The position numbers and the translations under genes are program-made. From Alphaproteobacteria bacterium (lineage in GTDB: Bacteria > Myxococcota_A > UBA796 > CAJQPC01), in the NCBI GenBank assembly GCA_020632795.1, contig JACKEV010000010.1, positions 1-31,126 on the forward strand: 31,126 nucleotides of DNA, written 5' to 3'. Position 1 is the stretch's first letter; each line of letters starts with the position of its first letter. The notes under the pieces are model-generated. The model was given only the letters and a program-made list of their open reading frames with translations, was not told the DNA's origin and did not search any database. This document shows, piece after piece, positions 1 through 28,163 of this stretch.

Positions 1-78
1 GTTTCTTCGGTATACCTGTGCCGCGGCGGTCGCCCGCTCCGACGGGAGCGCGGTCCGTCCCCTCACCTCGGAGCCTGC

Positions 79-2942: not shown

Positions 2943-2946
2943 CGCC

Positions 2947-3789: not shown

Positions 3790-3808
3790 GGTCTCCTCCT
3801 TCCTGGGG

Positions 3809-4609: not shown

Positions 4610-4663
4610 CGCCCCGGAATCTACGCGCCCCCCCCAGCCCTGTCGCTGTGGCAAGTTGTCGCG

Positions 4664-5205: not shown

Positions 5206-6873
5206 CAGCTTCCACCAGTACGGCAGGTGGTTGTCCGCGTCGGTGCGCTGGCCGGGCAGCCAGAACGGCGCGCTGGAGGGGTCCTGCCCCGCCGAGGCCG
5301 CCTCGGTGTCGATGGCGGTCACCCAGATCTGCGGCTCGTCGCGGTCGTCGATGGCGTAGTCCCGCAGCGAGCTGTAGGCCAGCCACAGCACGTCGTCGTC
5401 GGGCAGCGGGCCCCAGCGCGGGTAGCTGTTCTGGAGCCCCGTGCCCTCGCCGTTGGCGTTGCTCAGGCGGATGTTGAGGTCGCCCTCGGGGTTGACCAGG
5501 TACAGCTCGGCGTCCCGCGAGGCGTAGCCCCGCCCGATGGTGCGGTTGTAGGCGATCCACGCCCCATCCGGGGACCACGCCGGGTAGTAGTAGTTGTAGA
5601 CCGGGTCGCCGGGCACCACCACCTGGGGGTCGCCCAGGTCCCCGTCGTTCCACGGCAGGATGACGATCTCACCGCCCCGGAAGAAGAACTCGTTCTCCCA
5701 CTCCCGCACGATCCGCACCGCGACCACGGACTCACCGTCGGGAGAGAAGTCCGGCTGGCTGTAGGGATCCGGGAAGCTGTAGGTGCGCAGCCGCTCCCCG
5801 GTCTCCATCGAGTAGAGCGAGAAGACGCCCTCGTTGGTCGCCAGCAGGTACCGCCCGTCAGGGGAGACCGTCTTGAACGTGATGCGCCGGTCGTCGGAGT
5901 GGGCCACCCGCACGAAGGGGTTGTCGGGGTTGCCCACGTCCAGGATGGAGAACATGCCGCTGATGCCGTCGTGGCTGATCACCATCTCGTCGGTGATCTC
6001 GCTGACGACGTGGCAGCCGTAGCAGGAGTCGTCGGGGAAGTCGCCCCAGAACACCTCGGCCTGGTCCGAGCCGAACGGGATGCGCATGATGCCGCGCACG
6101 GCGGTGGACCAGTAGAGCACGCTGCCCCGGGCGTCCAGGCGGTTCACCGTCAGGGTGATGGGCGGGCCCTCGACCACGTCGGTGAGCGCGCTGCCGCTCC
6201 AGGTGCCCGAGGCGACCGTGACCTCGACCTCGCCGTTGCGGTTGGCCGCCGAGATCTGCTCCCACAGCGCGGCGGTGGCGAACCAGCTCGTGTCGGTCAG
6301 GGTGAACACCGAGATGTCGGTGATGTCCGAGCGCAGCCGCAGGCGGTGGGCGTTGGCGCCTGTGGGGGCGTCCCACAGGAACCCCAGGCCCTCGAGGTTG
6401 CGGGGCACCCGCACGCCGTCGCTGGGGTAGAGCAGCGCGGGGCTCGCACCGGTGGTGGGGCTGGCCGCGTCGAAGGCCGCGACGAGCCCCGCGTCGGCTC
6501 CGTCGGCGACCACGTCCTCGGTGTAGACCACCCGCACCTCGGCGGTGGCCTCGATGCCCAGGTGGGCGGCGGTGACCAGGGTGACCCCGCCGTTGGTGTC
6601 CACCGAGGTGAAGACGCCGTCGGCGTCGATCTCCCCGGCGGAGAGGTTGGAGCTGCTCCAGGCCACCAGATCGATCTCGGCCTCGACGCCGCTCTCGAAG
6701 GTCGCGATCGCCGCGAAGTCGACCTCCACGGGATCGCCGGTGGTCACCTCGGCTTCGACCGCGTCGGGCTCCAGCCGCAGGGCGACCACGTCACCGTCGA
6801 GGTTCTCGACCACGCCGTTGTCGGTGCCGCTGCCGGTGCAGGCCGCGCCCGCCAGGATCAGGAGGATGCTCAC
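5203..6873 (-). CDS. TolB-like beta-propeller lipoprotein with N-terminal Ig-like region and a single CxxCH motif
   Basis: GTG start at 6873 gives (M)SILLILAGAAC, a lipoprotein signal, and overlaps the vWA gene stop as GTGA. Repeated SPDG/PDG PD40-like blades (SPDGRYLL, FSPDGESV, WSPDGAWIAY) indicate a TolB-type propeller. CYGCH is present at about aa 300. Confidence 0.55.
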   Translation of the reverse strand: MSILLILAGAACTGSGTDNGVVENLDGDVVALRLEPDAVEAEVTTGDPVEVDFAAIATFESGVEAEIDLVAWSSSNLSAGEIDADGVFTSVDTNGGVTLVTAAHLGIEATAEVRVVYTEDVVADGADAGLVAAFDAASPTTGASPALLYPSDGVRVPRNLEGLGFLWDAPTGANAHRLRLRSDITDISVFTLTDTSWFATAALWEQISAANRNGEVEVTVASGTWSGSALTDVVEGPPITLTVNRLDARGSVLYWSTAVRGIMRIPFGSDQAEVFWGDFPDDSCYGCHVVSEITDEMVISHDGISGMFSILDVGNPDNPFVRVAHSDDRRITFKTVSPDGRYLLATNEGVFSLYSMETGERLRTYSFPDPYSQPDFSPDGESVVAVRIVREWENEFFFRGGEIVILPWNDGDLGDPQVVVPGDPVYNYYYPAWSPDGAWIAYNRTIGRGYASRDAELYLVNPEGDLNIRLSNANGEGTGLQNSYPRWGPLPDDDVLWLAYSSLRDYAIDDRDEPQIWVTAIDTEAASAGQDPSSAPFWLPGQRTDADNHLPYWWKL

Positions 6874-7802
6874 AGCCCGGTGTCCTCCAGCGAGCCCGTG
6901 CCCGCCCACTCGTAGTAGCGCGCGGTCAGCTCGCTGCCGGGCGGGGGCACCGCGTAGCCGTCCAGCACCAGCATGTTGTAGCCGGCGTCGTAGGTCCAGC
7001 CGTGGCGCTCGCGGGGATGGATGATGACGCCGTCGACCGCGACCTCCATCGAGGACAGCTCGGGCAGGGCCCGCAGCGCGAAGCGGTTCTCCATGCCCAG
7101 CACCTTGAGGGCCACCCGGCGCAGCATGCCGTCGTAGTCCGCCGCGCAGATCGACTCCCGCAGGCCGCCGGTGAGGGCCTGGGCCTCGACGTAGCGCGCG
7201 CCCGGGTCGGCGGCGGCCAGCAGCGACGCGCAGCCCTCGGGCAGGTCACCGACGATGGCGTTCACCCCCAGCGCGGCGTCCGGCCGCAGGGCCTGGAGCG
7301 CGTCGACGAACGCGGCGGCGTCCAGGTCGGAGTGGTCGTCCTCGTCGGTGAAGAAGACGACCTCCATGTCCGCCTCGGGCCGCCCGAAGCCGCCCTGGGC
7401 GGGGTCGAAGGCGGCCAGCGCGGCGTCGAAGCCCCGCTCGTCCCGGCTCCCCTCCCCGCCCAACACGGTCAGCTCGGCGAAGCGGTCGGACAACAGAGGG
7501 GTGTCCGGGTCCAGCTCCTGGCCCATGATCTGCCCGGCCGCCTCGCCGTCCATGTCGGTGGTGACGATGCCCAGGCGGAAGTCGACCGCGACGGTGGACA
7601 GGTAGCTGACGAAGCTGACCGCGTGGGCGGCGAGCTGGACCTGCTCCTCGTACATCGAGGCGGAGTCGTCGATGACCCAGAGCACATCCACGCCCTGCTC
7701 GCGGGAGGGCTGGACCCAGCTCTCCTGCTCGACGTGGCGGGTCACGCCGTAGTCGACGCAGCCCGTGAGGAGCAGCGCTGGAAGCAGTCCTGGCTTCGTC
7801 AT
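6870..7802 (-). CDS. von Willebrand factor A (vWA) domain lipoprotein
   Basis: MTKPGLLPALLLTGC lipobox. The start could be 7802 or 7808; 7802 has AGGATG 4 nt upstream. VLWVIDDSASM is a MIDAS-type DxSxS motif at the start of a vWA fold. Confidence 0.6.
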   Translation of the reverse strand: MTKPGLLPALLLTGCVDYGVTRHVEQESWVQPSREQGVDVLWVIDDSASMYEEQVQLAAHAVSFVSYLSTVAVDFRLGIVTTDMDGEAAGQIMGQELDPDTPLLSDRFAELTVLGGEGSRDERGFDAALAAFDPAQGGFGRPEADMEVVFFTDEDDHSDLDAAAFVDALQALRPDAALGVNAIVGDLPEGCASLLAAADPGARYVEAQALTGGLRESICAADYDGMLRRVALKVLGMENRFALRALPELSSMEVAVDGVIIHPRERHGWTYDAGYNMLVLDGYAVPPPGSELTARYYEWAGTGSLEDTGL

Positions 7803-7878
7803 CGACATCCTGCGCACGGCGGGAAATGTACCACGCCGCGCGCAGGCCCAGACCACCCGAAAGCGACCGCCAGCAGGC

Positions 7879-8688
7879 TCAGCCGGCGTCGGCCTTGTGG
7901 ATGACGATCTGGTCGAACGGGATCTCGATGCCGGCGGCGTCCAGCTCCTCGTAGATGGCCACCCGGCCGTTGTGGGTGGCGGCGAAGTAGTCCTCGGGCT
8001 TCATGTAGATGTGGAGGAGCAGGTCCAGGGAGCTGGCCCCGAAGTTCACGAAGGCCACCCCCGGGCCGGGCTCAGCCACCACCTTCTCGGCCCGGCGGCC
8101 GGCCTTGAGCAGGGCCTCGGTCGCCTTGCCCAGGTCGGTGCCGTAGGCCACGCCGATGGCCAGGGACTCACGCCGCACGCCCATCATGGAGTAGTTCTTG
8201 ATGTTCCCGCCCAGGACCGCGCTGTTGGGCACGATGATGGTGGTGTTGGCGGGGGTCTCCAGGGTCGTCACGAAGATGCCGATGTCCTTGACCTGGCCCT
8301 CCTCGCCCGCGATCTCGACGATGTCGTCCAGCCGGATCGGCTTGAAGAAGAGGATCAGCACGCCGCTGGCGAAGTTCGCCAGGCTGCCCTGCAGGGCCAG
8401 GCCCACCGCCAGGCCGGCCGAGCCCAGCACCACCGAGAGGCTGGTCGTCTCGATGCCCACGGTCTGGAGCGCCGCGATGACCGTCGCGATCAGCACCAGA
8501 TACCGCGCGATGGAGCCGAGGAAGCGGGCCAGGGCCTCCTCCACGTCGCCGCGCTTGAGGGAGCGGTAGAGCAGGCCTTCGGCCCACTTCGCGCCCATCC
8601 AGCCGATGAAGAAGATGGCGATGGCGCCCGCGATGCCCTGGATCATGGGCAGATAGGGCTGAAAGGTCTCCGGAATCTCAGGAGGCAT
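7879..8688 (-). CDS. mscS: Small-conductance mechanosensitive channel (MscS family)
   Basis: ATG at 8688 with GGAGAG RBS. Three TM helices are followed by the conserved MscS beta-domain (GLALQGSLANFASGVLILFFKPIRLDDIVEI...IIVPNS). Confidence 0.75.
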   Translation of the reverse strand: MPPEIPETFQPYLPMIQGIAGAIAIFFIGWMGAKWAEGLLYRSLKRGDVEEALARFLGSIARYLVLIATVIAALQTVGIETTSLSVVLGSAGLAVGLALQGSLANFASGVLILFFKPIRLDDIVEIAGEEGQVKDIGIFVTTLETPANTTIIVPNSAVLGGNIKNYSMMGVRRESLAIGVAYGTDLGKATEALLKAGRRAEKVVAEPGPGVAFVNFGASSLDLLLHIYMKPEDYFAATHNGRVAIYEELDAAGIEIPFDQIVIHKADAG

Positions 8689-11627: not shown

Positions 11628-12429
11628 CGCGGGAACCGTCGTCGTCAAGTACGGCGGCGCGGCGATGAAGGACGCGGGGCTCTCCGAGACCCTCATGCGG
11701 GATCTGGTGGCGCTCCAGGCCCGCGGCGCCCGGGTCGTGCTGGTGCACGGCGGGGGCGCCGCGGTGACGGAGATCGGGCGGCGCCTGGGCCTGGAGGCCC
11801 GCTTCGTGGACGGCCTGCGGGTCACCGACCCCGAGACGATGCGGGTCGCCCAGCGGGTGCAGGTCGGCGAGATCGGGCGCGGCATCGTGGCCGCCATCGG
11901 GCGGGCCGGCGGCCGGGCGCTGGGTCTCTCCGGCCACGACCTCGGGGGTTGGCTGCGCGGCGCGCGCCGGCAGCACATCCACCGGCAGACCGGCGAGCCC
12001 GTGGACCTGGGCCGGGTCGGGGACATCTGCGCGGTCGACGCCGCCGCCCTCAGCGCCGTGCTCGACCAGGGCTGGATCCCGGTGGTGGCGCCGGTCGCGG
12101 TCGACGCCGACTTCGAGGCCCTCAACGTGAACGCCGACAGCGTCGCCACCGCCGTGGCTGCCGCCCTCCAGGCCGACCGTCTCGTGCTGCTCACCGACGT
12201 CGACGGGGTGCGCGGCGCCGACGGCCAGCCGGCCCGCGCGGTCTCCGCGGACACCCTGCGGGCCTGGATCGCGTCCGGCGTGGTCTCCGGCGGCATGATC
12301 CCCAAGGCCGAGGGCTGCCTGGACGCCCTGGCCGGCGGGGTCGGCGCGGTCTCCATCGCCGACGGACGGGTCCCCCACGCCCTGCTGGGCGCCTTCTCGG
12401 CGAGCGGCGGCACGGAGGTCCACCCATGA
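11608..12429 (+). CDS. argB: Acetylglutamate kinase
   Basis: VVKYGG amino-acid kinase N-terminal motif and GGMIPK near the C-terminus. Overlaps the argJ end by 20 bp. Confidence 0.85.
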   Translation: MRTTEADAGTVVVKYGGAAMKDAGLSETLMRDLVALQARGARVVLVHGGGAAVTEIGRRLGLEARFVDGLRVTDPETMRVAQRVQVGEIGRGIVAAIGRAGGRALGLSGHDLGGWLRGARRQHIHRQTGEPVDLGRVGDICAVDAAALSAVLDQGWIPVVAPVAVDADFEALNVNADSVATAVAAALQADRLVLLTDVDGVRGADGQPARAVSADTLRAWIASGVVSGGMIPKAEGCLDALAGGVGAVSIADGRVPHALLGAFSASGGTEVHP

Positions 12430-19022: not shown

Positions 19023-20495
19023 TCAGCGCATCCCGAACCCCCGCAGCTTGCGCTTGAGGGTGTTCCGGTCGATGCCCAGCGCCCGCGCCGCCTGGGAGAG
19101 GTTCCCGTCGAGCTGCGCCAGGGCGTCCGCGATCGCGGCGCGCTCGACCTCAGCCACCCGCTCGACCAGCGGGCGCAGCGGTCCACCCAGGGGCGCCACC
19201 GCCACCCGCACCGGGGCCCCCCGGATCTCCGGGGAGAGGTCCTCCACCGCCACCACATCCTCGCAGAACACCCCCCAGCGGGTCACCTCGGCCCGCAGCT
19301 CCCGCACGTTGCCCGGCCACCGCCAGGACCGCAGCGCGTCCCAGGCCGCCCGCGTCAGCTTCAGGGGCCGCCCCAGCTCCTCCATGAAGTGGGCCACCAG
19401 CCGCTCCAGGTCGCCGCCCCGATCCCGCAGCGCCGGGACCTCGAGGGTCGCGCCCCGCAGCCGATAGTAGAGGTCCTCCCGAAACCGGCCGGCGCGCACC
19501 TCGGACGCCAGGTCCCGGTGGGTCGCCGCGACCACCCGCACGTCCACCCGCACCGGCCGCTCGCCGCCCACCCGACGCAGCTCGCCCTCCTGCAACACCC
19601 GCAGGAGCTGGACCTGCACCCGGGGCGGCATCTCGCCCACCTCATCCAGGAACAGCGTGCCGCCGTCCGCCACCTCGAACAGGCCCCGGCGCCGCCCGGA
19701 GGCCCCGGTGAAGGCCCCCTTCTCGTGCCCGAACAGCTCGCTGGAGAGCACGCCCTCGGCGAACGCCCCGCAGTTCTCGGCGATGAACGGCCCTTCAGCC
19801 CGCGCGCTGGCGGAGTGGATCGCGCGGGCGACCAGCTCCTTGCCCGTCCCGGTCTCCCCATACACCAGCACCGGCACCTCGCTGGGCGCCACCCGGGCCA
19901 GCCTGCGTCGAAGCGTCTGCATGGGCGCGCTCTCGCCGATCATGCGGTCGCTGTCGGCGCGGCGCTCGGCGCGCAGCCGGACCAGCTCCTCGCGCAGGGC
20001 GCGGATCTCCGGGAAGCCCTCGATCTCCAGCCGCACCTCCCGGATGGCCCGGGGGTGGGGGTCTGGTACGAAGGCCGGCGGGATGACCTGGAGCATGCGC
20101 GCCCGGAGCAGCCCCGCCTGCACCAGGATGACCCACAGGGTCTGGGACTGGGGCGTGCCTGCCGAGAGCACCACGTCCAGCTCGGGCGCGCCGCGCAGCT
20201 CCTCGACCAGGGGCGCCAGCCCGAAGAACAGCGCCTCGTGGTCGGTTGGATCCGCCAGATCGATGAGCCGCAGCTCCGCGCGCAGGCCACGCTCCCGCAT
20301 CCGCGCCACCAGGCCCCGAGCGCCCTCCAGCCCCGAGGGGATGCTCAGCACCAGGACCCGGTCGTAGCGCCCCTGGCTCTCCGGCTGGTCGAGGAGCCGC
20401 AGCACAGGCCCCTGATCCGCCGGGTTGTGCGGGAGGGGAGGGCCGGGGACCGGGCGAGGGGCGCCGCGGTCGGACCAGGTGAGCAGCGTGGCCAT
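19023..20495 (-). CDS. rtcR: Sigma54-dependent transcriptional regulator with non-receiver N-terminal domain, RtcR-like (CARF-AAA+-HTH)
   Basis: AAA+ sigma54-interaction domain (GETGTGKE, GAFTGA, ESELFGHEKGAFTGA) and C-terminal Fis-type HTH. The N-terminal ~190 aa lack the receiver D-D-K pattern; the segment DVVLSAGTPQSQTLWVILVQAGLLRARMLQVIPP resembles the CARF domain of RtcR as remembered. ATG at 20495; the track ORF extension to 20861 is not supported. Confidence 0.7.
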   Translation of the reverse strand: MATLLTWSDRGAPRPVPGPPLPHNPADQGPVLRLLDQPESQGRYDRVLVLSIPSGLEGARGLVARMRERGLRAELRLIDLADPTDHEALFFGLAPLVEELRGAPELDVVLSAGTPQSQTLWVILVQAGLLRARMLQVIPPAFVPDPHPRAIREVRLEIEGFPEIRALREELVRLRAERRADSDRMIGESAPMQTLRRRLARVAPSEVPVLVYGETGTGKELVARAIHSASARAEGPFIAENCGAFAEGVLSSELFGHEKGAFTGASGRRRGLFEVADGGTLFLDEVGEMPPRVQVQLLRVLQEGELRRVGGERPVRVDVRVVAATHRDLASEVRAGRFREDLYYRLRGATLEVPALRDRGGDLERLVAHFMEELGRPLKLTRAAWDALRSWRWPGNVRELRAEVTRWGVFCEDVVAVEDLSPEIRGAPVRVAVAPLGGPLRPLVERVAEVERAAIADALAQLDGNLSQAARALGIDRNTLKRKLRGFGMR

Positions 20496-21084: not shown

Positions 21085-21103
21085 GTCTGTATTGAATACA
21101 GAC
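21085..21103. promoter_or_regulatory. Perfect palindrome GTCTGTATT-G-AATACAGAC next to a consensus TTGACA (21123-21128) upstream of the tRNA array
   Basis: 9-bp arms with no mismatch, which is rare in a 70% GC genome. The -35 consensus hexamer is 20 bp downstream and about 100 bp upstream of the first tRNA. Confidence 0.4.
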
Positions 21104-21227
21104 CTCACACAGTTCCTCTTCTTTGACATCGCGAATACGCATGGAGTTTCACGGGTCCGCGTCGCGCCAATCACGGCGGTCGTCAGCGGCGCGGGCCCAC
21201 CCCCCTCTCACCCAGGAGAGGGGTTGT

Positions 21228-21303
21228 GCGCCCGTAGCCAAGCGGTCCATAAGGCACCGGACTCTTAATCCGGCGATCGTGGGTTCGAATCCCACCGGGT
21301 GTA
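21228..21303 (+). tRNA. tRNA-Lys(CTT)
   Basis: Cloverleaf: acceptor GCGCCCG/CGGGTGT (two G-U pairs), anticodon arm CCGGA-CTCTTAA-TCCGG, T-arm GTGGG-TTCGAAT-CCCAC. Confidence 0.75.
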
Positions 21304-21391
21304 CCTCGGTTCTCCACGGGAGATGCTCGCGCAGCGCTCCACGGGAGATGCCTGTCCTGAGCCTCTGCGACCCCGCGTCGCCGAGGCCTGT

Positions 21392-21468
21392 CGGGGTGTA
21401 GCTCAGCCTGGGAGAGCGGCTGGTTCGGATCCAGCAGGTCGTCGGTTCAAATCCGGCCACCCCGACCA
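21392..21468 (+). tRNA. tRNA-Pro(CGG)
   Basis: Acceptor CGGGGTG/CACCCCG, anticodon loop TTCGGAT, T-arm GTCGG-TTCAAAT-CCGGC, encoded CCA. Confidence 0.85.
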
Positions 21469-21520
21469 TCACACGCCTGGAGCGGCCGGTTCTGCACCGG
21501 TCGGTCGCTCCGGGCTCCCT

Positions 21521-21592
21521 GCGGCCGTAGCTCAAAGGTAGAGCACCGTCTTGCCATGGCGGAGGTTGCGCGTTCGAGTCGCGTCGGCCGCT
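21521..21592 (+). tRNA. tRNA-Gly(GCC)
   Basis: Acceptor GCGGCCG/CGGCCGC, anticodon loop TTGCCAT, T-arm GCGCG-TTCGAGT-CGCGT. Confidence 0.85.
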
Positions 21593-21616
21593 TTCGGATC
21601 CACGCAGGGTCCTCGT

Positions 21617-21693
21617 CCGGGTGTAGTTCAGATGCGGAGAACGCCGCGCTGGGAGCGCGGAGGTCGCTGGTTCAAGTCCAGCCACTCGGACCA
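21617..21693 (+). tRNA. tRNA-Pro(GGG)
   Basis: Acceptor CCGGGTG/CACTCGG (one G-U), anticodon loop CTGGGAG, T-arm GCTGG-TTCAAGT-CCAGC, CCA encoded. Confidence 0.8.
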
Positions 21694-21703
21694 TCCCCCT
21701 CAA

Positions 21704-21787
21704 GGCGACGTAGCCAAGCGGAAAGGCACTCGGCTGCAACCCGGGGAGCGCGGCTCCTCCGGAGCGGGTTCAATCCCGCCGTCGCCT
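21704..21787 (+). tRNA. tRNA-Cys(GCA)-like, 84 nt, with a 14-nt insertion before the T-arm and a 6-nt T-loop (variant or pseudogene)
   Basis: Identical to canonical copy 21946..22016 in acceptor (GGCGACG/CGTCGCC, U73), D-arm and anticodon arm (loop CTGCAAC). It carries CTCCTCCGGAGCGG inserted between the variable loop and T-stem, and TTCAAT where the canonical copy has TTCAAAT. Confidence 0.55.
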
Positions 21788-21824
21788 CTTGTTCATGTTC
21801 CAACTGACCCATCACACTTCTCAA

Positions 21825-21908
21825 GGCGACGTAGCCAAGCGGAAAGGCACTCGGCTGCAACCCGGGGAGCGCGGCTCCTCCGGAGCGGGTTCAATCCCGC
21901 CGTCGCCT
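21825..21908 (+). tRNA. tRNA-Cys(GCA)-like, second identical 84-nt copy with the 14-nt insertion
   Basis: Exact 121-bp tandem duplicate (gene plus spacer) of 21704..21824. Confidence 0.55.
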
Positions 21909-21945
21909 CTTGTTCATGTTCCAACTGACCCATCACACTTCTCAA

Positions 21946-22016
21946 GGCGACGTAGCCAAGCGGAAAGGCACTCGGCTGCAACCCGGGGAGCGCGGGTTCA
22001 AATCCCGCCGTCGCCT
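21946..22016 (+). tRNA. tRNA-Cys(GCA), canonical 71 nt
   Basis: Acceptor GGCGACG/CGTCGCC with U73 discriminator (the Cys identity element), anticodon loop CTGCAAC, 4-nt variable loop, T-arm GCGGG-TTCAAAT-CCCGC. Confidence 0.8.
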
Positions 22017-22023
22017 CTTGTCT

Positions 22024-22100
22024 CAAGGTGTAGCTCAGGCGAGGAGAGCGGCTGGTTTGGAACCAGCAGGCCGCCGGTTCGAGTCCGGCCACCTTGACCA
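22024..22100 (+). tRNA. tRNA-Pro(TGG)
   Basis: Acceptor CAAGGTG/CACCTTG, anticodon loop TTTGGAA, T-arm GCCGG-TTCGAGT-CCGGC, CCA encoded. Confidence 0.85.
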
Positions 22101-22116
22101 TCTCTGACGACCACAT

Positions 22117-22188
22117 GCGTCCGTAGCTCAATGGTAGAGCGCTGCCCTCCCAAGGCAGAGGTTGCGCGTTCGAGTCGCGTCGGTCGCT
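22117..22188 (+). tRNA. tRNA-Gly(CCC)
   Basis: Acceptor GCGTCCG/CGGTCGC (one T-T mismatch), anticodon loop CTCCCAA, T-arm GCGCG-TTCGAGT-CGCGT. Confidence 0.75.
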
Positions 22189-22195
22189 TCCCTAC

Positions 22196-22266
22196 AGGGT
22201 CGAGCGCTGGTTGTGTCAGGCGGCCTCCAAAGTCGCCCTGCGAGAGTTCGAATCTCTCCGGCCCTG
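22196..22266 (+). tRNA. tRNA-Trp(CCA) with irregular D-arm
   Basis: Anticodon loop CTCCAAA and T-arm/acceptor GAGAG-TTCGAAT-CTCTC-CGGCCCT-G closely resemble bacterial tRNA-Trp (A1-U72, G73). The D-arm does not fold cleanly by eye. Confidence 0.55.
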
Positions 22267-22285
22267 CTCCTTCATCCAGCACCAC

Positions 22286-22359
22286 AGGCGAGTGGCGCAA
22301 TCGCGGAGCGCACCGCTCTCACACAGCGGAGGTTGCGGGTTCGAGTCCCGCCTCGCCTA
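22286..22359 (+). tRNA. tRNA-Val(CAC)
   Basis: Acceptor AGGCGAG/CTCGCCT, D-stem GCGC/GCGC, anticodon loop CTCACAC, T-arm GCGGG-TTCGAGT-CCCGC. Confidence 0.8.
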
Positions 22360-22389
22360 TCATCCCCAACAAGCCCAGAGGAGGTCCCC

Positions 22390-23484
22390 ATGTCCTCTTT
22401 CGCCGTCAAGGTCGTGCGGCTCCGCGTCGAGCCACACCACAACGCAGATGCCCTCGAGCTGGCGCGCGTGGGCGACTACCTCTCCGTGGTCCGCAAGGGC
22501 CAGTTCAGGACCGGCGACCTCGCCGCCTACATCCCCGAGCAGGCCATCGTCCCCGACGAGCTGCTCGAGGAGATGGGGCTCACGGGGCGCCTGGCCGGCA
22601 AGTTCGCCAACCGCGTCAAGGCCATCCGGCTGCGGGGCGTGCTGTCCCAGGGCCTCTGCTACCCGGCGCGGCCGGAGTGGCCCGAGGGCCTCGACGTGAC
22701 CGAGACCCTGGGCATCGTCAAGCACGAGCCCCCGGTCCCCACGTCGATGGACGGCCAGGCCTGGGCGGCCGGGCTGGACCGCTGCCTGCGCTACGACATC
22801 GAGAACATCAAGCGTTTCCCCGATGTCCTGGCCGACGGCGAGCCGGTCGTCTTCACCGAGAAGATCCACGGCACCTGGACCCAGCTCGGCCTCGTGCCCG
22901 AGGCCTGGGCCCACGCCGAGCACGGTCGGCTGGTCGTCAGCTCGAAGGGGCTCGCCGCGCGCGGCCTGGCGTTCATGCCGAACGCCCAGGAGAACGAGCG
23001 AAACCTCTACCTCCGGGTCGCCCGCACCCTGGACATCGAGGCCCGCCTGGAGGCGGCCTTCAGCGGCACGCTGAGCGCCGACGCGCCGGTCTTCGTCCTC
23101 GGCGAGACCTTCGGCGCGGGCGTCCAGGACCTCGCCTACGGCGCGAACGTCGGCCACGACGCCAGCCTCGGCTTCCGGGTGTTCGACGTCTACGTCGGCG
23201 CGGTCGGCCAGGGGCACTTCCTGGACGACACCGAGCTGGAGGCCGCGTGCCGTGCGCTCAGCCTGGAGCGTGTCCCGGTGGTCTACCGGGGTCCGTTCAG
23301 CCGCGAGGCGCTCGCCGAGCACACCGACGGCCGCGAGCAGGTCAGCGGAGAGGGCAAGCACATCCGAGAGGGTGTGGTCGTCCGACCCGTCCACGAGCGG
23401 CGCCACGACGAGCTGGGCCGCGTCCAGCTCAAGTCGGTGTCCGAGCGCTACCTGCTCCGCAAGGGTGGGACCGAGTACAACTGA
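22390..23484 (+). CDS. ATP-dependent RNA ligase (Rnl2/Rnl5-like nucleotidyltransferase) with N-terminal tRNA-binding OB fold (Myf/Trbp111/CsaA-like)
   Basis: ATG at 22390 with RBS AGAGGAGG. N-terminal VKVVRLRVEPHHNADAL...RLRGVLSQGLC matches the HPNAD...KLRGV.S.GM.C pattern of the tRNA-binding OB domain. FTEKIHGTW is the KxHG lysine-adenylylation motif I of RNA ligases. A hairpin follows at ~23489-23525. The part of the track ORF 5' of 22390 reads through tRNA genes and is rejected. Confidence 0.7.
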   Translation: MSSFAVKVVRLRVEPHHNADALELARVGDYLSVVRKGQFRTGDLAAYIPEQAIVPDELLEEMGLTGRLAGKFANRVKAIRLRGVLSQGLCYPARPEWPEGLDVTETLGIVKHEPPVPTSMDGQAWAAGLDRCLRYDIENIKRFPDVLADGEPVVFTEKIHGTWTQLGLVPEAWAHAEHGRLVVSSKGLAARGLAFMPNAQENERNLYLRVARTLDIEARLEAAFSGTLSADAPVFVLGETFGAGVQDLAYGANVGHDASLGFRVFDVYVGAVGQGHFLDDTELEAACRALSLERVPVVYRGPFSREALAEHTDGREQVSGEGKHIREGVVVRPVHERRHDELGRVQLKSVSERYLLRKGGTEYN

Positions 23485-23561
23485 GACGGCAGCGCGCGGC
23501 GCGGAGACGGGGCCCCCTCGCCTCCGCGCCCCAACCCCGATAGGAGGGGCGGTGAGGATGA

Positions 23562-23634
23562 GGGTTCGTAGCTCAAGCGGTAGAGCAACGGCCTTTTAAG
23601 CCGGCGGTTCCGGGTTCGAGTCCCGGCGGACCCA
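23562..23634 (+). tRNA. tRNA-Lys(TTT)
   Basis: Acceptor GGGTTCG/CGGACCC (one G-U), anticodon loop CTTTTAA, T-arm CCGGG-TTCGAGT-CCCGG. Confidence 0.8.
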
Positions 23635-23662
23635 CCTCCCTCCTGCCCATCGGGGACCCTGT

Positions 23663-23736
23663 TCCCTGGTCGTTCAACGGCAGGACACCTGGCTCTGAAC
23701 CAGGAGATGGAGGTTCGAGTCCTCCCTGGGGGACCA
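23663..23736 (+). tRNA. tRNA-Gln(CTG)
   Basis: Anticodon arm CCTGG-CTCTGAA-CCAGG, T-arm GGAGG-TTCGAGT-CCTCC, CCA encoded. The acceptor TCCCTGG/CTGGGGG needs three G-U pairs. Confidence 0.6.
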
Positions 23737-23768
23737 TCCGCTCGCGTCGGGCGTCATCGACGCAACAT

Positions 23769-23845
23769 GGGGCAGTAGCTCAACTGGGAGAGCGTCGGGC
23801 TGGCAGTCCGAAGGTTGTGGGTTCAATCCCCATCTGTCTCCACCA
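23769..23845 (+). tRNA. tRNA-Ala(GGC)-like with non-canonical acceptor (extra nt in 3' strand)
   Basis: 5' GGGGCAG, D-arm TAGCTCAACTGGGAGAGC, anticodon loop CTGGCAG, T-arm GTGGG-TTCAATC-CCCAT. The 3' strand CTGTCTCC-A-CCA is one nt longer than the CTGCTCC needed to pair with G3-U70. Confidence 0.55.
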
Positions 23846-23877
23846 TCCGCTCGCGTCGGGCGTCATCGACGCAACAT

Positions 23878-23967
23878 GGGGCAGTAGCTCAACTGGGAGA
23901 GCGTCGGGCTGGCAGTCCGAAGGTTGTGGGTCCTCCAGACCGGGTTCACTCCCATCTGTCTCCACCA
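23878..23967 (+). tRNA. tRNA-Ala(GGC)-like, 90 nt, with a 14-nt insertion before the T-arm and a 6-nt T-loop (variant or pseudogene)
   Basis: Identical to 23769 copy through the anticodon arm. It carries TCCTCCAGACCGGG inserted and TTCACT in place of TTCAATC. This is the same pair of changes seen in the Cys-like copies. Confidence 0.5.
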
Positions 23968-23997
23968 TCCGCTCGCGTCGGGCGTCATCGACGCAAC

Positions 23998-24074
23998 ATG
24001 GGGCAGTAGCTCAACTCGGGAGAGCGCCCGGTTCGCATCCGGGAGGTTGTGGGTTCAAGTCCCATCTGTCTCCA
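23998..24074 (+). tRNA. tRNA-Ala(CGC)-like (same non-canonical acceptor)
   Basis: Anticodon arm CCCGG-TTCGCAT-CCGGG, T-arm GTGGG-TTCAAGT-CCCAT. It shares the 5' spacer and acceptor of the 23769 copy. Confidence 0.55.
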
Positions 24075-24107
24075 CCATCCGCTCGCGTCGGGCGTATACG
24101 GCGCAAC

Positions 24108-24180
24108 ATGGGACGGTAGCTCAATCGCGGAGAGCGTCCGGCTTGCACCCGGGAGGCTGCGGGTTCGAATCCCGCCCGCT
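24108..24180 (+). tRNA. tRNA-Ala(TGC)
   Basis: Acceptor GGGACGG/CCGCTCC with G3-U70 and one A-C mismatch, anticodon loop CTTGCAC, T-arm GCGGG-TTCGAAT-CCCGC. The end coordinate is approximate. Confidence 0.65.
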
Positions 24181-24195
24181 CCACTCGCGGCAGAA

Positions 24196-24228
24196 GGGGC
24201 GGCGGCGCATGGGGAGCGCCGCCGCCCC
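24196..24228 (+). terminator. Perfect 13-bp-stem hairpin GGGGCGGCGGCGC-ATGGGGA-GCGCCGCCGCCCC inside the tRNA array
   Basis: Read directly from the sequence. No T-run. It lies between tRNA-Ala(TGC) and tRNA-Gln(TTG). Confidence 0.35.
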
Positions 24229-24237
24229 ACGGGGTCT

Positions 24238-24309
24238 GCGGGGATGGCCAAGCGGCAAGGCGCCGGGCTTTGAACTCGGAGAGCGTGGGTTCGATCCCCA
24301 CTCCCCGTT
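24238..24309 (+). tRNA. tRNA-Gln(TTG)
   Basis: D-arm GCC-AAGCGGCAA-GGC, anticodon arm CCGGG-CTTTGAA-CTCGG, T-arm GTGGG-TTCGATC-CCCAC, acceptor GCGGGGA/TCCCCGT. Confidence 0.7.
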
Positions 24310-24329
24310 CCTCCCCTTCCCATCTCCCC

Positions 24330-24403
24330 GCCGGTGTAGCTCAGTCGGCCAGAGCGCCTGACTCGTAATCAGGAGGTCGCCGGTTCGACTCCGGCCACCG
24401 GCT
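24330..24403 (+). tRNA. tRNA-Thr(CGT)
   Basis: Acceptor GCCGGTG/CACCGGC, anticodon loop CTCGTAA, T-arm GCCGG-TTCGACT-CCGGC. Confidence 0.85.
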
Positions 24404-24411
24404 CTCCATGC

Positions 24412-24483
24412 GCCCGGGTAGCTCAGTGGAAGAGCACCGCACTGGTAACGCGGAGGTCGGGAGTTCGATTCTCCCCCCGGGCA
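24412..24483 (+). tRNA. tRNA-Thr(GGT)
   Basis: Acceptor GCCCGGG/CCCGGGC, anticodon loop CTGGTAA, T-arm GGGAG-TTCGATT-CTCCC. Confidence 0.8.
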
Positions 24484-24487
24484 TTGT

Positions 24488-24560
24488 GCCCGCTTGGCTC
24501 AACAGGCAGAGCATCCGTCTTGTAAGCGGGAGGTTGCGAGTTCGATTCTCGCGGCGGGCA
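24488..24560 (+). tRNA. tRNA-Thr(TGT)
   Basis: Acceptor GCCCGCT/GGCGGGC, anticodon loop CTTGTAA, T-arm GCGAG-TTCGATT-CTCGC. Confidence 0.8.
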
Positions 24561-24569
24561 CTACCTCAT

Positions 24570-24642
24570 GCAGGCGTAGCTCACTTGGAAGAGCGTCGGG
24601 TTTCCACCCCGAAGGTCGCCGGTTCGACCCCGGTCGCCTGCT
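24570..24642 (+). tRNA. tRNA-Gly(TCC)
   Basis: Acceptor GCAGGCG/CGCCTGC, anticodon loop TTTCCAC, T-arm GCCGG-TTCGACC-CCGGT. Confidence 0.8.
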
Positions 24643-24689
24643 CTCACGAGACCCCATGCGTGTTCGCGATGTCACCTCAGGAGGCGGTC

Positions 24690-25277: not shown

Positions 25278-25283
25278 GACCAC

Positions 25284-25320
25284 GCGCCCCCCTTGACGGG
25301 GGGCGCGCTTGGTTGTATTT
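25284..25320 (+). terminator. Intrinsic terminator: 9-bp stem GCGCCCCCC-TTGAC-GGGGGGCGC followed by GCTTGGTTGTATTTGTTG
   Basis: Perfect stem plus T-rich tail directly after the HNH stop. Confidence 0.6.
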
Positions 25321-25334
25321 GTTGCTCAGGCAAC
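25319..25334. promoter_or_regulatory. Palindromic operator TTGTTGC-TCAG-GCAACA (copy 1) immediately upstream of marR
   Basis: The inverted repeat GTTGC/GCAAC ends 4 nt before the marR ATG. The identical 16-mer recurs at 25806-25821. Confidence 0.5.
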
Positions 25335-25337
25335 ATC

Positions 25338-25787
25338 ATGAAAGACCGCTTCTCCGACACCTCCAGCATCGACAAGGCGACGGCCTACCGGCTGCTGCGG
25401 GTGGCCCGGCTGCTCCGCCACGACCTGGCGGGCGCGCTGGCCCGGTGGGACCCGGACCTCACGCCGGAGCAGTACTTCGTCCTCTTCCGGCTGCACGAGC
25501 GCGACGGGCGCGCCCAGCGCGAGCTGGTGGACCCGGTGCTGGACGACCGGGCCAACATCACCCGCCTGGTGGACAAGCTCCAGGCGCGGGGGCTGGTCGA
25601 GCGGCGCCCGGACCCGGACGACGGGCGGCGCAACCAGGTGTGGCTCACCGACGCCGGCCGCGCCCTCTTCGACACGCTGCTGCCCCGCATCCCCGCCGAG
25701 CGGCGCCGCCTGTTCGGCGACCTCGCCCCCGGCGAGCTGGACGCGCTGCACGACCTGCTGGACCGACTGGAGGATCGCCTGGGGTGA
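25338..25787 (+). CDS. MarR-family transcriptional regulator
   Basis: 150 aa with a winged-helix region (LTPEQYFVLFRLHERDGRAQRELVDPVLDDRANITRLVDKLQARGLVERRPDPDDGRRNQVWLT) typical of MarR. Confidence 0.75.
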   Translation: MKDRFSDTSSIDKATAYRLLRVARLLRHDLAGALARWDPDLTPEQYFVLFRLHERDGRAQRELVDPVLDDRANITRLVDKLQARGLVERRPDPDDGRRNQVWLTDAGRALFDTLLPRIPAERRRLFGDLAPGELDALHDLLDRLEDRLG

Positions 25788-25805: not shown

Positions 25806-25821
25806 TTGTTGCTCAGGCAAC
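25806..25821. promoter_or_regulatory. Palindromic operator TTGTTGC-TCAG-GCAAC (copy 2) upstream of the NTF2-like gene
   Basis: Exact 16-mer repeat of 25319-25334, 14 bp upstream of the ATG at 25836. Confidence 0.5.
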
Positions 25822-25835
25822 TTTTTGGAGGACCC

Positions 25836-26281: not shown

Positions 26282-26297
26282 TGGCACGGCGCGTGCT
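26282..26297 (+). promoter_or_regulatory. Sigma54 (-24/-12) promoter TGGCACG-GCGC-GTGCT upstream of rtcB
   Basis: TGGCACG-N4-TTGCW consensus matched except for one position. GG and GC are spaced correctly. It lies about 30 bp upstream of the rtcB ATG. Inverted repeats ATCAC-TACGT-GTGAT and TGATGC-ATAGC-GCATCA lie 30-70 bp further upstream. Confidence 0.55.
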
Positions 26298-26325: not shown

Positions 26326-27540
26326 ATGTGCACCCTGCCTGTCCACGCCCGCATCCTCGCCCGCGACGACGTCCGCGTTGAAGGCGACGCCGTCGATCAG
26401 CTCGCCCGCGTGGCGGGCTTCCCCGGCTGCGTGCGGGCTGTCGGCCTGCCGGACCTGCACCCCGGGCCAGGCATCCCCATCGGCGCGGCCTTCGCGTTCC
26501 GCGACGCGGTGTGGCCCGGTCTGGTGGGCGGAGACGCCGGCTGCGGCGCGCGGCTGGTGGCCCTCTCCAAGACCCGGATGCGCGGGGACGCCCTGGAGCG
26601 CCGCGTGCGGGAGTGGACCGAGGGCCCGCCGCTGCCGGACGCCGACCCCGACGCGCTGCTGGCGGCGGTCTGGGCCCGGGGCCCGCGCGGCCTGGCGGAG
26701 GTCCCGGGCGTGCCCGCCTCCCTGGCGGCGCTCGCCGAGGTCGAGGCCCCCGAGCCGGATGGCCCGGTCGCTCCCCTGCCCTTCGAGGGTCGGTTCGGGG
26801 CGTCCCTGGGCACGGTGGGTGGGGGCAACCACTTCGCCGAGATCAGCGAGGTCACCGAGGTGGCCGACAAGCCGCGCGCGCGGGCCCTGGGCCTCCGGCA
26901 CGGCGGGACGGTGGTGCTGGTCCACTCCGGGTCCCGGGGTCTGGGCAAGGCCCTGGCCGATCGGTGGGGCCTGCGGGCGCTGACCGGCGCCGACCAGGCG
27001 CAGTACCTGGGCGAGCTGGCCGGCGCGCTGCGGTTCGCCCGCGCCAACCGGCTGGTCATCGCGTGGAGGCTGCTGGGCGCCCTGGGCTCCGCGCGCCCCT
27101 CCCGCGTCGCCCATCAGGTCGACCTCATCCACAACAGCGTGGTCCGGGGCACCCTGGGCGGGCAGGGGGTATGGGTCCACCGCAAGGGCAGCGCCCCGGC
27201 CGAGGCCGGCCAGCCCACCGTGGTGCTGGGCAGCCGGGGCACGCCGAGCTGGGTGATGGAGGGCACCGGCTCGGAGGACAGCCTGGCCTCGGTGGCCCAC
27301 GGCGCGGGCCGGGCGATGGGGCGCAGCGAGGCGGTGGCCAAGCTCAAGCCGGCCATGACCCGGAAGTCCCTGCTGCGGACCGCGTCAGGGGGGCGGGTCA
27401 TCTGCGACGACCCCGAGCTGCTCTACGCCGAGCACCCCAAGGCCTACAAGCCCATCGGGCCGGTGGTCGACAGCCTGGTGGAGGCCGGGCTGGCCCGGCC
27501 AGTGGCGGCGCTGCTGCCGCAGTTCACGGTGAAGCGATGA
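26326..27540 (+). CDS. rtcB: RtcB-family RNA 3'-phosphate/5'-OH ligase
   Basis: 404 aa. Conserved RtcB metal- and GTP-site motifs DAGCGAR (D-x-GCG), GGGNHFAE (GxGNHF) and HGAGR (HNHAGR-like). ATG at 26326 with GGAG 8 nt upstream. Confidence 0.8.
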   Translation: MCTLPVHARILARDDVRVEGDAVDQLARVAGFPGCVRAVGLPDLHPGPGIPIGAAFAFRDAVWPGLVGGDAGCGARLVALSKTRMRGDALERRVREWTEGPPLPDADPDALLAAVWARGPRGLAEVPGVPASLAALAEVEAPEPDGPVAPLPFEGRFGASLGTVGGGNHFAEISEVTEVADKPRARALGLRHGGTVVLVHSGSRGLGKALADRWGLRALTGADQAQYLGELAGALRFARANRLVIAWRLLGALGSARPSRVAHQVDLIHNSVVRGTLGGQGVWVHRKGSAPAEAGQPTVVLGSRGTPSWVMEGTGSEDSLASVAHGAGRAMGRSEAVAKLKPAMTRKSLLRTASGGRVICDDPELLYAEHPKAYKPIGPVVDSLVEAGLARPVAALLPQFTVKR

Positions 27541-28163
27541 GGCGGCTGTTGCTGGTGTCCGCCGGCACCGGGCCGGTGGAGGTGCGGCGCTTCGTGGCGC
27601 TGCTGGCGGCCTGGTTGGCCGAGGCCTGCGCGTCGCGGGGGCTCGCGGTGCGCTCGGTGACCGTGAGCGGTGAGGACGAGGCGCCGCGGTCGGTGACGCT
27701 GGAGGTCTCGGGCGGGGCGTCGCTGGAGGGCCTGCTGGGGACCCACGCGCTGGTGGCCCGCAGCGCGACCCGGGGCCGCCGCGCCCGCAAGCGCTGGTAC
27801 GCCGGAGTCAGCGCGCACGACGCGCCCGTCGGGGCTGCGGTGGAGGTCGACCCCTCGGAGGTGAGCTTCACCGCGTGCCGGGCGGGGGGCCCCGGCGGGC
27901 AGCACGTCAACACCACCGCCAGCGCGGTGTGGGCCACCCATGGGCCCACCGGGCTGCGGGTACGTGTCGCCAGCGAGCGCTCCCAGCACGCCAACCGGAG
28001 GATCGCCCTGGCGCGGCTGGCGGAGGTGCTCGCCTCGCGGGACGCTGAGAAGCGCGCGGTGGGCCGGGACCGGCGATGGCGCTCCCACCATCGCCTGGAA
28101 CGGGGGCGTCCGGTGCGGACCTGGGGGCTGGATCCCGGTGGGGCTGCGCTGGTGGAGCGCTGA
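27537..28163 (+). CDS. prfH: Peptide chain release factor homologue PrfH (RF-H)
   Basis: 208 aa. GGQ motif (GGPGGQHVNTTASAV) in a short class-I RF-like fold. The start overlaps the rtcB stop (ATGA), the canonical rtcB-prfH coupling. Confidence 0.75.
   Translation: MRRLLLVSAGTGPVEVRRFVALLAAWLAEACASRGLAVRSVTVSGEDEAPRSVTLEVSGGASLEGLLGTHALVARSATRGRRARKRWYAGVSAHDAPVGAAVEVDPSEVSFTACRAGGPGGQHVNTTASAVWATHGPTGLRVRVASERSQHANRRIALARLAEVLASRDAEKRAVGRDRRWRSHHRLERGRPVRTWGLDPGGAALVER

Follow-up and report, generated by a model that had tools for sequence, protein, structure and literature searches.

An Rnl5-type RNA ligase gene as a conserved cargo gene of a long bacterial tRNA array

RNA ligases of the Rnl5 type are widespread in bacteria, phages, archaea and protists. 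The characterised members catalyse the Mn2+-dependent sealing of 3′-OH/5′-PO4 nicks in duplexes with an RNA 3′-OH strand (PMC7261155, PMC5397189), and the physiological substrates of the family have been described as 'uncharted' (PMC5397189). Long tRNA arrays are known from several sources. L-arrays are operons of up to 43 supernumerary tRNA genes spread by horizontal gene transfer (Santamaria-Gomez et al. 2021; PMC8421152). The cyanobacterial ones have an HNH homing endonuclease gene and rtcB linked to them, and in Anabaena the array, the HNH gene and rtcB are co-induced under translational stress (PMC8421152). In the mycobacterial 'tRNA array units' (Morgado & Vicente 2018; PMC5966550), which are also treated in PMC12803027, an HNH endonuclease is the most widespread coding sequence, and an RF-1-domain gene and PTH2 occur as well (PMC5966550). 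The tRNAs of jumbo phages are 'supplemented' by RtcB and ATP-dependent RNA ligases (RtcB/Rnl1/Rnl2) (PMC7824862). An Rnl5 enzyme in a bacterial L-array is mentioned in none of these four reports (PMC8421152, PMC5966550, PMC12803027 and PMC7824862); the word 'ligase' has 0 occurrences in PMC5966550 and PMC12803027, and PMC8421152 names RtcB alone. Here we describe an Rnl5 gene, rnl5, on a contig of 31,126 nucleotides (nt) from a metagenome-assembled genome (MAG; assembly GCA_020632795.1, contig JACKEV010000010.1), which was analysed over its whole length and is called the window in the following. The ligase gene belongs to the conserved cargo of a long, probably accessory tRNA array that is accompanied by a family-typical HNH gene.

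The ligase gene and its ribosome-binding site were located as follows:

22390..23484, + strand: rnl5 open reading frame, ATG at 22390, TGA at 23482-23484, 364 amino acids
22379..22384, + strand: Shine-Dalgarno sequence AGGAGG, 5 nt 5′ of the rnl5 ATG, read directly off the sequence

Longer mechanical open reading frames from 22131 and 22162 are mere read-through of the tRNA genes upstream of rnl5. A preliminary description made from the sequence alone had proposed a protein of DraRnl-type architecture, in which an OB domain at the N-terminus precedes the adenylyltransferase part, encoded by a gene with its own ribosome-binding site. These proposals are borne out. The peptides on which they were based are found at residues 14-22 (EPHHNADAL), 80-90 (RLRGVLSQGLC) and 158-161 (KIHG) of the ligase. 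The NCBIfam model TIGR02306 (RNA_lig_DRB0094, the DraRnl equivalog) scores 242.3 bits against a cutoff of 151.15 and aligns end to end, with residues 10-357 of the ligase on profile positions 8-341 of 341. The OB domain comprises approximately residues 1-125 and the nucleotidyltransferase domain approximately residues 150-357. Motif I (K158-I-H-G) is followed by motifs III (LGE239TFG), IIIa (FRVFDVY), IV (RE327G) and V (LK348S), so that the nucleotidyltransferase motifs 3′ of KIHG, whose absence the preliminary description had named as speaking against its reading, are all present. The KxHG form of motif I presumably matches that of DraRnl. The closest solved relative is NgrRnl from Naegleria gruberi, with an identity of only 23%. 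In a profile alignment built from 26 homologues, K158, E239, E327 and K348 of the ligase correspond to K170, E227, E312 and K326 of NgrRnl, and K158/H160/G161, E239, F265/D266, E327/G328 and K348 are invariant in 26/26 homologues. An identical protein is deposited at NCBI as 'MAG: RNA ligase (ATP) [Alphaproteobacteria bacterium]' (P0001), and the gene product is therefore already correctly named. Judged by its sequence, the ligase is a member of the well-studied, already annotated Rnl5 family, and its catalytic motifs are predicted to be intact.

The N-terminal domain had been assigned to the tRNA-binding Trbp111/CsaA/MetRS-C type. Of this assignment, the OB-fold topology stands, and the domain resembles tRNA-binding OB proteins. 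The type itself does not: a Pfam profile search of the ligase gave no match to tRNA_bind (PF01588) at E<=1, and residues 12-92 match PF21189 ('PHA02142 OB-fold') with 43.9 bits instead. The second profile proposed as a check, RNA_ligase (PF09414), does match, at residues 151-348 with 79.8 bits. In a solved Rnl5 enzyme the OB domain was shown to position the ATP γ-phosphate for lysine adenylylation, not to bind tRNA, and the residues of NgrRnl that contact the γ-phosphate are Arg4, Lys121 and Asp53 (PMC7261155). The ligase equivalent of Lys121, K111 in GIVKHEPP, is invariant; E50 lies near the position of Asp53, and R10, outside the coverage of the alignment, is a candidate for Arg4.

The tRNA genes that flank rnl5 form two half-arrays:

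21228..22359, + strand: upstream half-array, 11 genes (ARAGORN, Rfam)
23562..24643, + strand: downstream half-array, 11 genes (ARAGORN, Rfam)

ARAGORN and Rfam each report 21 tRNAs, and their lists differ by one gene each, as Rfam adds an 86-nt tRNA-like gene at 23878-23963 and rejects a Trp-like gene at 22196-22267. Taken together, 22 tRNA or tRNA-like genes, all on the + strand, are packed within 3.4 kb (21228-24643). The ligase gene thus is embedded in a same-strand tRNA array with tRNAs on both sides, 11 upstream and 11 downstream, as the preliminary description had stated. Its nearest upstream neighbour is Val(CAC), which ends 30 nt before the ATG, and its nearest downstream neighbour is Lys(UUU), which starts 77 nt after the stop codon. 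The upstream half-array reads Lys(CUU), Pro(CGG), Gly(GCC), Pro(GGG), three Cys (two of them 85-nt variants), Pro(UGG), Gly(CCC), Trp-like and Val(CAC). The downstream half-array begins with Lys(UUU), Gln(CUG), Ala(GGC), the 86-nt Ala(GGC)-like variant at 23878-23963, Ala(CGC) and Ala(UGC) and ends with Gln(UUG), Thr(CGU), Thr(GGU), Thr(UGU) and Gly(UCC). Only nine amino acids are covered (Lys, Pro, Gly, Cys, Trp, Val, Gln, Ala and Thr), and Pro, Gly, Ala, Thr, Gln and Lys are each represented by a full set of isoacceptors. With the Rfam tRNA model, 20/22 genes reach 50-74 bits. The Trp-like gene stays under the threshold of this model and has a score of only 25 bits, obtained with the tRNA-Sec model. 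Tandem repeats of 121 nt (three copies, upstream half-array) and 110 nt (four copies, downstream half-array) indicate that the array grows by local duplication. A hairpin that had been placed downstream of the ligase gene did not hold up as a terminator or attenuator: the folding of the GC-rich inverted repeat at 23482-23565 does not surpass that of dinucleotide-shuffled sequence (z = −0.13), and a U-tract is lacking.

The placement of the ligase gene is more than chance, as it is kept in a sister genome (MAG, GCA_020632815.1; locus L005) with a ligase 74% identical to that of the window. Chromosomal neighbourhood and layout are also kept. The order in L005 is sigma-54 activator, palindrome, repeat arm, 12 tRNAs, Rnl5, 10 tRNAs and second repeat arm, followed by the HNH gene, one unrelated gene, a sigma-54 promoter and RtcB-PrfH. 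Half by half, the arrays of the two genomes have an equal amino-acid repertoire. The junction around the ligase is common to both, with the Trp-like gene upstream and Lys(UUU) then a Gln tRNA downstream; the Trp-like gene adjoins the ligase in L005, whereas Val(CAC) intervenes in the window. Between the two genomes, rnl5 has a ratio of nonsynonymous to synonymous substitution rates (dN/dS) of 0.36 and the HNH gene one of 0.45; the strong bias in G+C content at third codon positions makes dS uncertain. For a wider comparison we collected 78 Rnl5 genome loci (one genome per species), 42 loci from IMG/VR and 80 metagenome loci; 194 loci were scored, 37 of them viral. Among the 78 genome loci, the array is shared only by L005, a patchy distribution consistent with horizontal acquisition.

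Some details of individual tRNAs were followed across the two genomes. The Trp(CCA)-like gene, kept at 22196-22267 in the window and at 9869-9940 in L005, has an aberrant D-arm, G73 and a proper acceptor stem. The tRNA-Lys(CUU) gene at 21228-21303 has, by the ARAGORN register, G1:U72, A73 and G3:U70, the alanine identity pair. G3:U70 was rejected as a conserved feature of this tRNA, the three Lys(CUU) genes of L005 being without it. Its absence from the tRNA-Ala genes of the window was likewise dropped: the register of the acceptor stem can be read in more than one way, and the pair is present in the L005 orthologues.

The array is framed by a set of elements:

21086..21102, unstranded: perfect 17-nt palindrome TCTGTATTGAATACAGA, 21 nt upstream of the left repeat arm
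21124..21150, unstranded: left arm of a 27-nt inverted repeat, TGACATCGCGAATACGCATGGAGTTTC, 78 nt before the first tRNA; the arms are 89% complementary
24648..24674, unstranded: right arm of the 27-nt inverted repeat, 5 nt past the last tRNA, ending 15 nt before the HNH start codon
24690..25277, + strand: HNH endonuclease gene, 195 amino acids, PF01844, starting 15 nt after the right repeat arm
25283..25307, + strand: terminator-like G+C-rich hairpin, the first of its kind past the array start, after the HNH gene

The inverted repeat brackets the tRNA array exactly, and L005 has a counterpart at 8414-8437 and 12130-12153 with 92% complementarity. From one genome to the other, both arms have changed in the same manner, CGCGAA of the window corresponding to CACGTA of L005, which shows that the inverted-repeat pair is maintained. 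With two genomes at hand, this upkeep may be due to a bound protein, to pairing at the RNA or DNA level, or to gene conversion. The repeat could represent the ends of a mobile cassette, an operator used twice or a 5′/3′ processing stem of the primary transcript. A palindrome is also found in L005 (TTTGTATTCAATACAAA, approx. 8380-8397) at the same relative place, approx. 20 nt upstream of the left arm, and TCTGTATTGAATACAGA and TTTGTATTCAATACAAA are candidate operators for the array promoter. The left repeat arm together with the preceding T includes TTGACA. This hexamer was rejected as a −35 element, as no acceptable −10 hexamer lies at 16-18 nt.

On sequence grounds, the HNH gene of the window is assigned to the family that accompanies tRNA array units. 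A homologue follows a 6-tRNA array in L128 and another closes the 37-tRNA array of L130; further homologues with 35-38% identity are embedded in a 29-tRNA array (Mycolicibacterium pCBMA213_1) and a 27-tRNA array (M. avium pS2b). Without tRNAs, an HNH gene stands directly after rnl5 in L016, L017 and L019, and in one JGI protein of 516 amino acids (P0038) an HNH domain is fused to Rnl5. We dropped the assumption that the HNH domain of P0038 belongs to the family of the array, as only the catalytic core aligns (37% identity over 49 amino acids). Because of this distant relationship, the fusion is weaker evidence of a functional link. In the P0038 locus (L002, 4547-8400; JGI Ga0118733_100010372), situated on a phage-like contig, PTH2, DUF5522, Cpn10 and a transfer-messenger RNA gene follow. 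An EF-Tu gene is embedded in the L130 array (1-8600; ERZ25071297, a 9.4-Mb contig), and 3 kb past this array there is a Ro60/TROVE gene.

Co-expression of rnl5 with the array tRNAs is likely from the anatomy of the locus, namely the single strand, the gaps of 30 and 77 nt and the position of the first terminator-like site after the HNH gene. As the first terminator-like site past the array start, the hairpin at 25283-25307 is the likely end of an array-rnl5-array-HNH transcription unit. Palindrome and left arm, 11 tRNAs, rnl5, 11 tRNAs, right arm, HNH gene and terminator-like hairpin would then make up one polycistronic precursor. Processing of the flanking tRNAs by RNase P and at their 3′ ends would free an rnl5 mRNA with a 30-nt leader and its own Shine-Dalgarno sequence, and the ligase would therefore be made whenever the array tRNAs are. 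Lys158 of the enzyme would receive the adenylyl group, ATP being positioned with the aid of the OB domain, and the enzyme would seal 3′-OH/5′-PO4 breaks in base-paired RNA. Its likely substrates would be nicked tRNAs, for instance those cut by metal-dependent nucleases that leave 3′-OH/5′-PO4 ends. Taken as a whole, the explanation that we favour, with moderate confidence, is that Rnl5 is cargo of an L-array, is co-expressed with the array tRNAs and reseals nicked tRNA. A role of the ligase in tRNA repair is suggested by family biochemistry and recurrent gene context and is the weakest step of this explanation. For the combination of array, ligase and HNH gene, a mobile or phage-type tRNA cluster is the most likely source, and purifying selection has most likely preserved it in a Myxococcota-like lineage.

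Linkage to tRNA genes recurs in other Rnl5 clades. In five Nannocystaceae/Polyangia genomes, tRNA-Gln(UUG) and tRNA-Gln(CUG) stand directly upstream of rnl5, the nearer one 61-95 nt away. The surroundings of these genes are otherwise ordinary, and the Gln tRNAs look canonical, unlike those of the array. Across the genomes with this mini-unit (L006, L008, L009, L013 and L061), the anticodons are swapped between the two tRNA bodies. A tRNA-Arg(UCU) gene lies approx. 76 nt upstream of rnl5 in five metagenome loci; these loci (L191, L198, L200, L201 and L204) belong to an Rnl5 clade of 47-50% identity, have a phage-like look and often carry Arg and Ile(UAU) tRNAs nearby. In L156 and L157, seven tRNAs (Ala, Val, Ala, Pro, Met, Cys, Pro) precede Rnl5, and the small open reading frame that follows shows an HNH-like Cys/His pattern by eye. 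Viral genomes add further cases. Many of the IMG/VR contigs are 100-460 kb long, and 26/42 of these loci have tRNAs within 10 kb; at least three same-strand tRNAs within 6 kb are present in 11/37 viral loci. For instance, in L084 (viral, 61% identity) Glu and three Pro tRNAs lie 300 nt downstream of Rnl5, and the Caulobacter phage CcrColossus has an Rnl5 homologue near tRNAs and a nucleotidyltransferase gene. Homologues also occur in Brevundimonas, Pseudomonas and Aeromonas phages. Over the 194 scored loci, 117 tRNAs within 6 kb of Rnl5 are on the same strand vs 4 on the opposite one. The linkage to tRNAs is a recurrent minority arrangement that has arisen several times, not a family-wide rule.

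Several observations weigh against the favoured explanation. The characterised Rnl5 enzymes require a duplex nick and have no known tRNA specificity (PMC5397189), adenylylation is the one shown role of the Rnl5 OB domain (PMC7261155), and the single known Rnl5 phenotype is radiation sensitivity in Deinococcus (PMC5397189). Most of the 78 genome loci have no nearby tRNA, among them all cultured Nannocystis species, whose Rnl5 is approx. 70% identical to that of the window, and only 17/194 loci have a same-strand tRNA within 300 nt. The strand bias is weak evidence in phages because most phage genes share one strand. A sigma-54 promoter before the array, which would place it under the neighbouring activator, is represented by weak, non-conserved matches only, and a scan for a sigma-70-type promoter at the same place found none. 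The chemistry of the breaks sets a further limit. Classical anticodon nucleases leave 2′,3′-cyclic-PO4/5′-OH ends, whereas Rnl5 needs 3′-OH/5′-PO4 ends. As no kinase-phosphatase partner for end healing is encoded near the ligase, its chemistry implies that the breaks made by these nucleases are not its direct substrates. The term 'dedicated tRNA nick-sealing enzyme' used in the preliminary description was thus an overstatement: it was derived from gene context only, the substrates of the family are termed 'uncharted' (PMC5397189), and most Rnl5 genes lie outside tRNA arrays.

An alternative view is that the ligase is a general sealer of nicks in duplex RNA or RNA:DNA hybrids without a tRNA-specific role and that tRNA genes were duplicated around an older tRNA-rnl5 junction. 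We regard this as unlikely, though deserving of serious consideration. Close relatives that have rnl5 alone or behind two ordinary-looking tRNA-Gln genes, in normal chromosomal surroundings, would fit such an ancestral state, and the growth of the array by tandem duplication is visible in its 121-nt (three copies) and 110-nt (four copies) repeats. Moreover, the OB domain of Rnl5 works in adenylylation (PMC7261155), and the DraRnl phenotype concerns ionizing radiation, with a proposed role in recovery from DNA damage (PMC5397189). Against a passive origin of the arrangement speaks the independent adjacency to different tRNAs (Gln, Arg, Glu, Pro, Val/Trp) in several Rnl5 clades, and the position of the ligase inside the array has been kept in two diverged genomes. 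Rnl5 also repeatedly adjoins HNH genes or is fused with them, and it is present in phage tRNA clusters. That array, ligase and HNH gene are the decaying, dead remnant of an integrated phage or plasmid segment seems very improbable. Some tRNAs do look degenerate (the sub-threshold Trp-like gene and the insertion-bearing variants), and the G+C content of rnl5 and the HNH gene (0.71) is below that of the flanking genes (0.73-0.77). Against decay, neither open reading frame is disrupted in either of the two genomes, dN/dS is 0.36 and 0.45, the catalytic residues are all conserved, 20/22 tRNAs score well on the Rfam model (50-74 bits), and the flanking repeat and the upstream palindrome are conserved in L005.

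The insertion-bearing tRNAs invite a more specific link between ligase and HNH protein. The window has two identical 85-nt tRNA-Cys genes (21704-21788 and 21825-21909) and the 86-nt Ala(GGC)-like gene (23878-23963); two 87-nt tRNA-Pro(CGG) genes are found in L005 (8778-8864 and 9121-9207) and one 87-nt tRNA-Asp gene in L128 (7673-7759). In all four isotypes and three genomes, a 13-nt insertion relative to the tandem paralogue occupies the same site within the 5′ strand of the T-stem. The insert forms a hairpin whose 4-5-bp stem varies between cases yet remains complementary, while the loop core CTCC is conserved. Within a genome, the T-arm modules with the insertion resemble one another. Exact deletion of the 13 nt yields a 5-bp T-stem and a 7-nt T-loop that starts with G, not U54. 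Minimum free energy folds of the long tRNAs are equally compatible with an extra variable-type arm and with a T-stem insertion. The variants could be scars left by the repair of double-strand breaks at the target of the HNH protein, alleles immune to cleavage that spread by gene conversion, or tRNAs with an extra arm. We consider it highly improbable that the inserts are mini-introns, the excision of which would leave a duplex nick of the type that Rnl5 seals. Equally little credence is given to a protein-only tRNA splicing in which the HNH protein, generating 3′-OH/5′-PO4 ends, excises the T-stem hairpin and Rnl5 seals the nick. Its extension to a cut-and-seal array, in which the 13-nt element would spread in DNA by interrupting the T-loop target of the HNH protein and would be excised from the RNA with sealing of the T-stem nick by Rnl5, is most doubtful too. 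In favour of such a scheme, a 13-nt hairpin with complementary stems and a constant CTCC recurs at one T-stem site and its removal restores the size of the T-arm, a nick within a stem is a textbook Rnl5 substrate, and HNH and Rnl5 are adjacent in L005, L016, L017, L019 and L156 and fused in P0038. Yet the T-loop after removal would lack the near-universal U54, and each long variant has a normal tandem paralogue, so that nothing requires the long variant to function. The HNH family is known from tRNA arrays as an endonuclease of the homing type that acts on DNA (PMC8421152, PMC5966550), the HNH domain of P0038 is only distantly related (37% identity over 49 amino acids), and the folds fit an extra variable-type arm equally well. 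In addition, a pattern search through approx. 2.4 Mb (the window and 130 loci), which missed the Ala variant, revealed no long variants in the other 2.3 Mb of loci. If true, a cut-and-seal array would constitute a protein-only bacterial tRNA splicing pathway and provide the first physiological substrate of the Rnl5 family.

Around the array unit lie a regulatory gene and a putative second RNA repair module:

19023..20495, − strand: sigma-54-dependent activator (Sigma54_activat, HTH_8), divergent from the array
26282..26297, + strand: sigma-54 promoter TGGCAC-N5-GTGCT, exact match, 29 nt upstream of the rtcB ATG
26326..27540, + strand: rtcB, TIGR03073 268.4 vs cutoff 271.8 (just under)
27537..28163, + strand: prfH, GGQ-containing, TIGR03072 153.6 vs cutoff 166.65 (just under)

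The NCBIfam RtcR model NF038308 scores 314 bits on the activator (cutoff 650) and aligns from residue 72, a start that is more N-terminal than that of all other listed activator models but one. We tentatively classify the activator as RtcR-like by its sequence. The rtcB and prfH genes overlap by 4 nt. The sigma-54 promoter fits TGGCAC-N6-TGC exactly and has an exact counterpart upstream of rtcB in L005. The RtcR-like activator is 5.8 kb from the RtcB-PrfH promoter, on the far side of the array, and the array thus seems to lie between the regulator and the rtcB-prfH operon that this regulator presumably controls. In the favoured explanation, the ligase would complement this neighbouring, sigma-54-controlled RtcB-PrfH module, which would deal with 2′,3′-cyclic-PO4/5′-OH ends and damaged ribosomes. 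With Rnl5 (3′-OH/5′-PO4) beside RtcB-PrfH (2′,3′-cyclic-PO4/5′-OH), one locus may cover both RNA break chemistries. A MarR gene and a lumazine-binding/SnoaL-like gene lie between the terminator-like hairpin of the array unit and the rtcB promoter. A palindrome-containing 29-mer (TTGTTGCTCAGGCAAC...) precedes each of them, at 25319-25347 (MarR gene) and 25806-25834 (lumazine-binding/SnoaL-like gene). The TTGTTGCTCAGGCAAC pair is probably a MarR operator pair, and the true start of the MarR gene is probably the ATG at 25338. The rest of the window consists of ordinary chromosomal genes (arginine biosynthesis, acetyl-CoA synthetase, MscS channel, lipoxygenase and others), and no phage structural genes were found in the 31 kb. 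The G+C content is 0.71 in rnl5 and the HNH gene vs 0.73-0.77 in the flanking genes. The best matches of the ligase, the G+C content of 70-78% and the set of genes suggest a Nannocystaceae-like lineage of Myxococcota as the source, and the label 'Alphaproteobacteria bacterium' of the MAG is probably wrong.

The locus hints at tRNA as a natural substrate of the Rnl5 family. Together with the recurrent adjacency of Rnl5 and tRNAs in other clades and in large phages, it makes nicked tRNA a testable candidate substrate for Rnl5. It also widens the known gene content of L-arrays and tRNA array units, which are currently discussed as stress-response or anti-defence devices.

Compared with the solved and characterised enzymes, the ligase of the window shares with DraRnl and NgrRnl the order of OB and nucleotidyltransferase domains and the complete set of nucleotidyltransferase motifs. 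Differences concern single residues and gene context. Arg149 and Asp172 of NgrRnl are replaced by Asn139 and His160 in the ligase, as read from the alignment, and the DraRnl gene is part of a two-gene operon with a DEDDh-like exonuclease gene (PMC5397189), whereas the ligase gene of the window is found in a tRNA array near an HNH gene. The tRNA-binding OB domains of Trbp111, CsaA, MetRS-C and PheRS-beta are described by a profile (PF01588) that the ligase does not match; the OB domain of Rnl5 contacts the ATP γ-phosphate, and the characterised enzymes depend on this domain for adenylylation.

Phage tRNA clusters follow the same logic as the window, combining spare tRNAs with a ligase that reseals cleaved tRNAs. 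T4 Rnl1/Pnkp, for instance, act against PrrC. Rnl5 homologues are located within tRNA-rich regions of many large viral contigs. Unlike the phage clusters, the locus in the window is chromosomal, is syntenic in two genomes and is free of phage structural genes over 31 kb. With the L-arrays and tRNA array units it has in common more than 20 densely packed same-strand tRNA genes, a patchy distribution and an HNH gene of the same family. Genes for translation or RNA repair are inside or near the array in each case: the cyanobacterial arrays have rtcB, the mycobacterial ones RF-1-domain and PTH2 genes, and the window has RtcB-PrfH. The sub-threshold Trp-like gene, the insertion variants and the coverage of only nine amino acids are indirect hints that the array tRNAs may be supernumerary to a housekeeping set. 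The published L-arrays differ from it in that no embedded ATP-dependent Rnl5 was reported for them (PMC8421152, PMC5966550), and the restriction to only nine amino acids, the conserved inverted repeat of 24-27 nt and the host, a Myxococcota-like MAG, also set the window array apart. The protein itself is of an already known kind. What is new is where this Rnl5 ligase gene lies, in an L-array and with an HNH gene and an RtcR-like/RtcB-PrfH module as neighbours.

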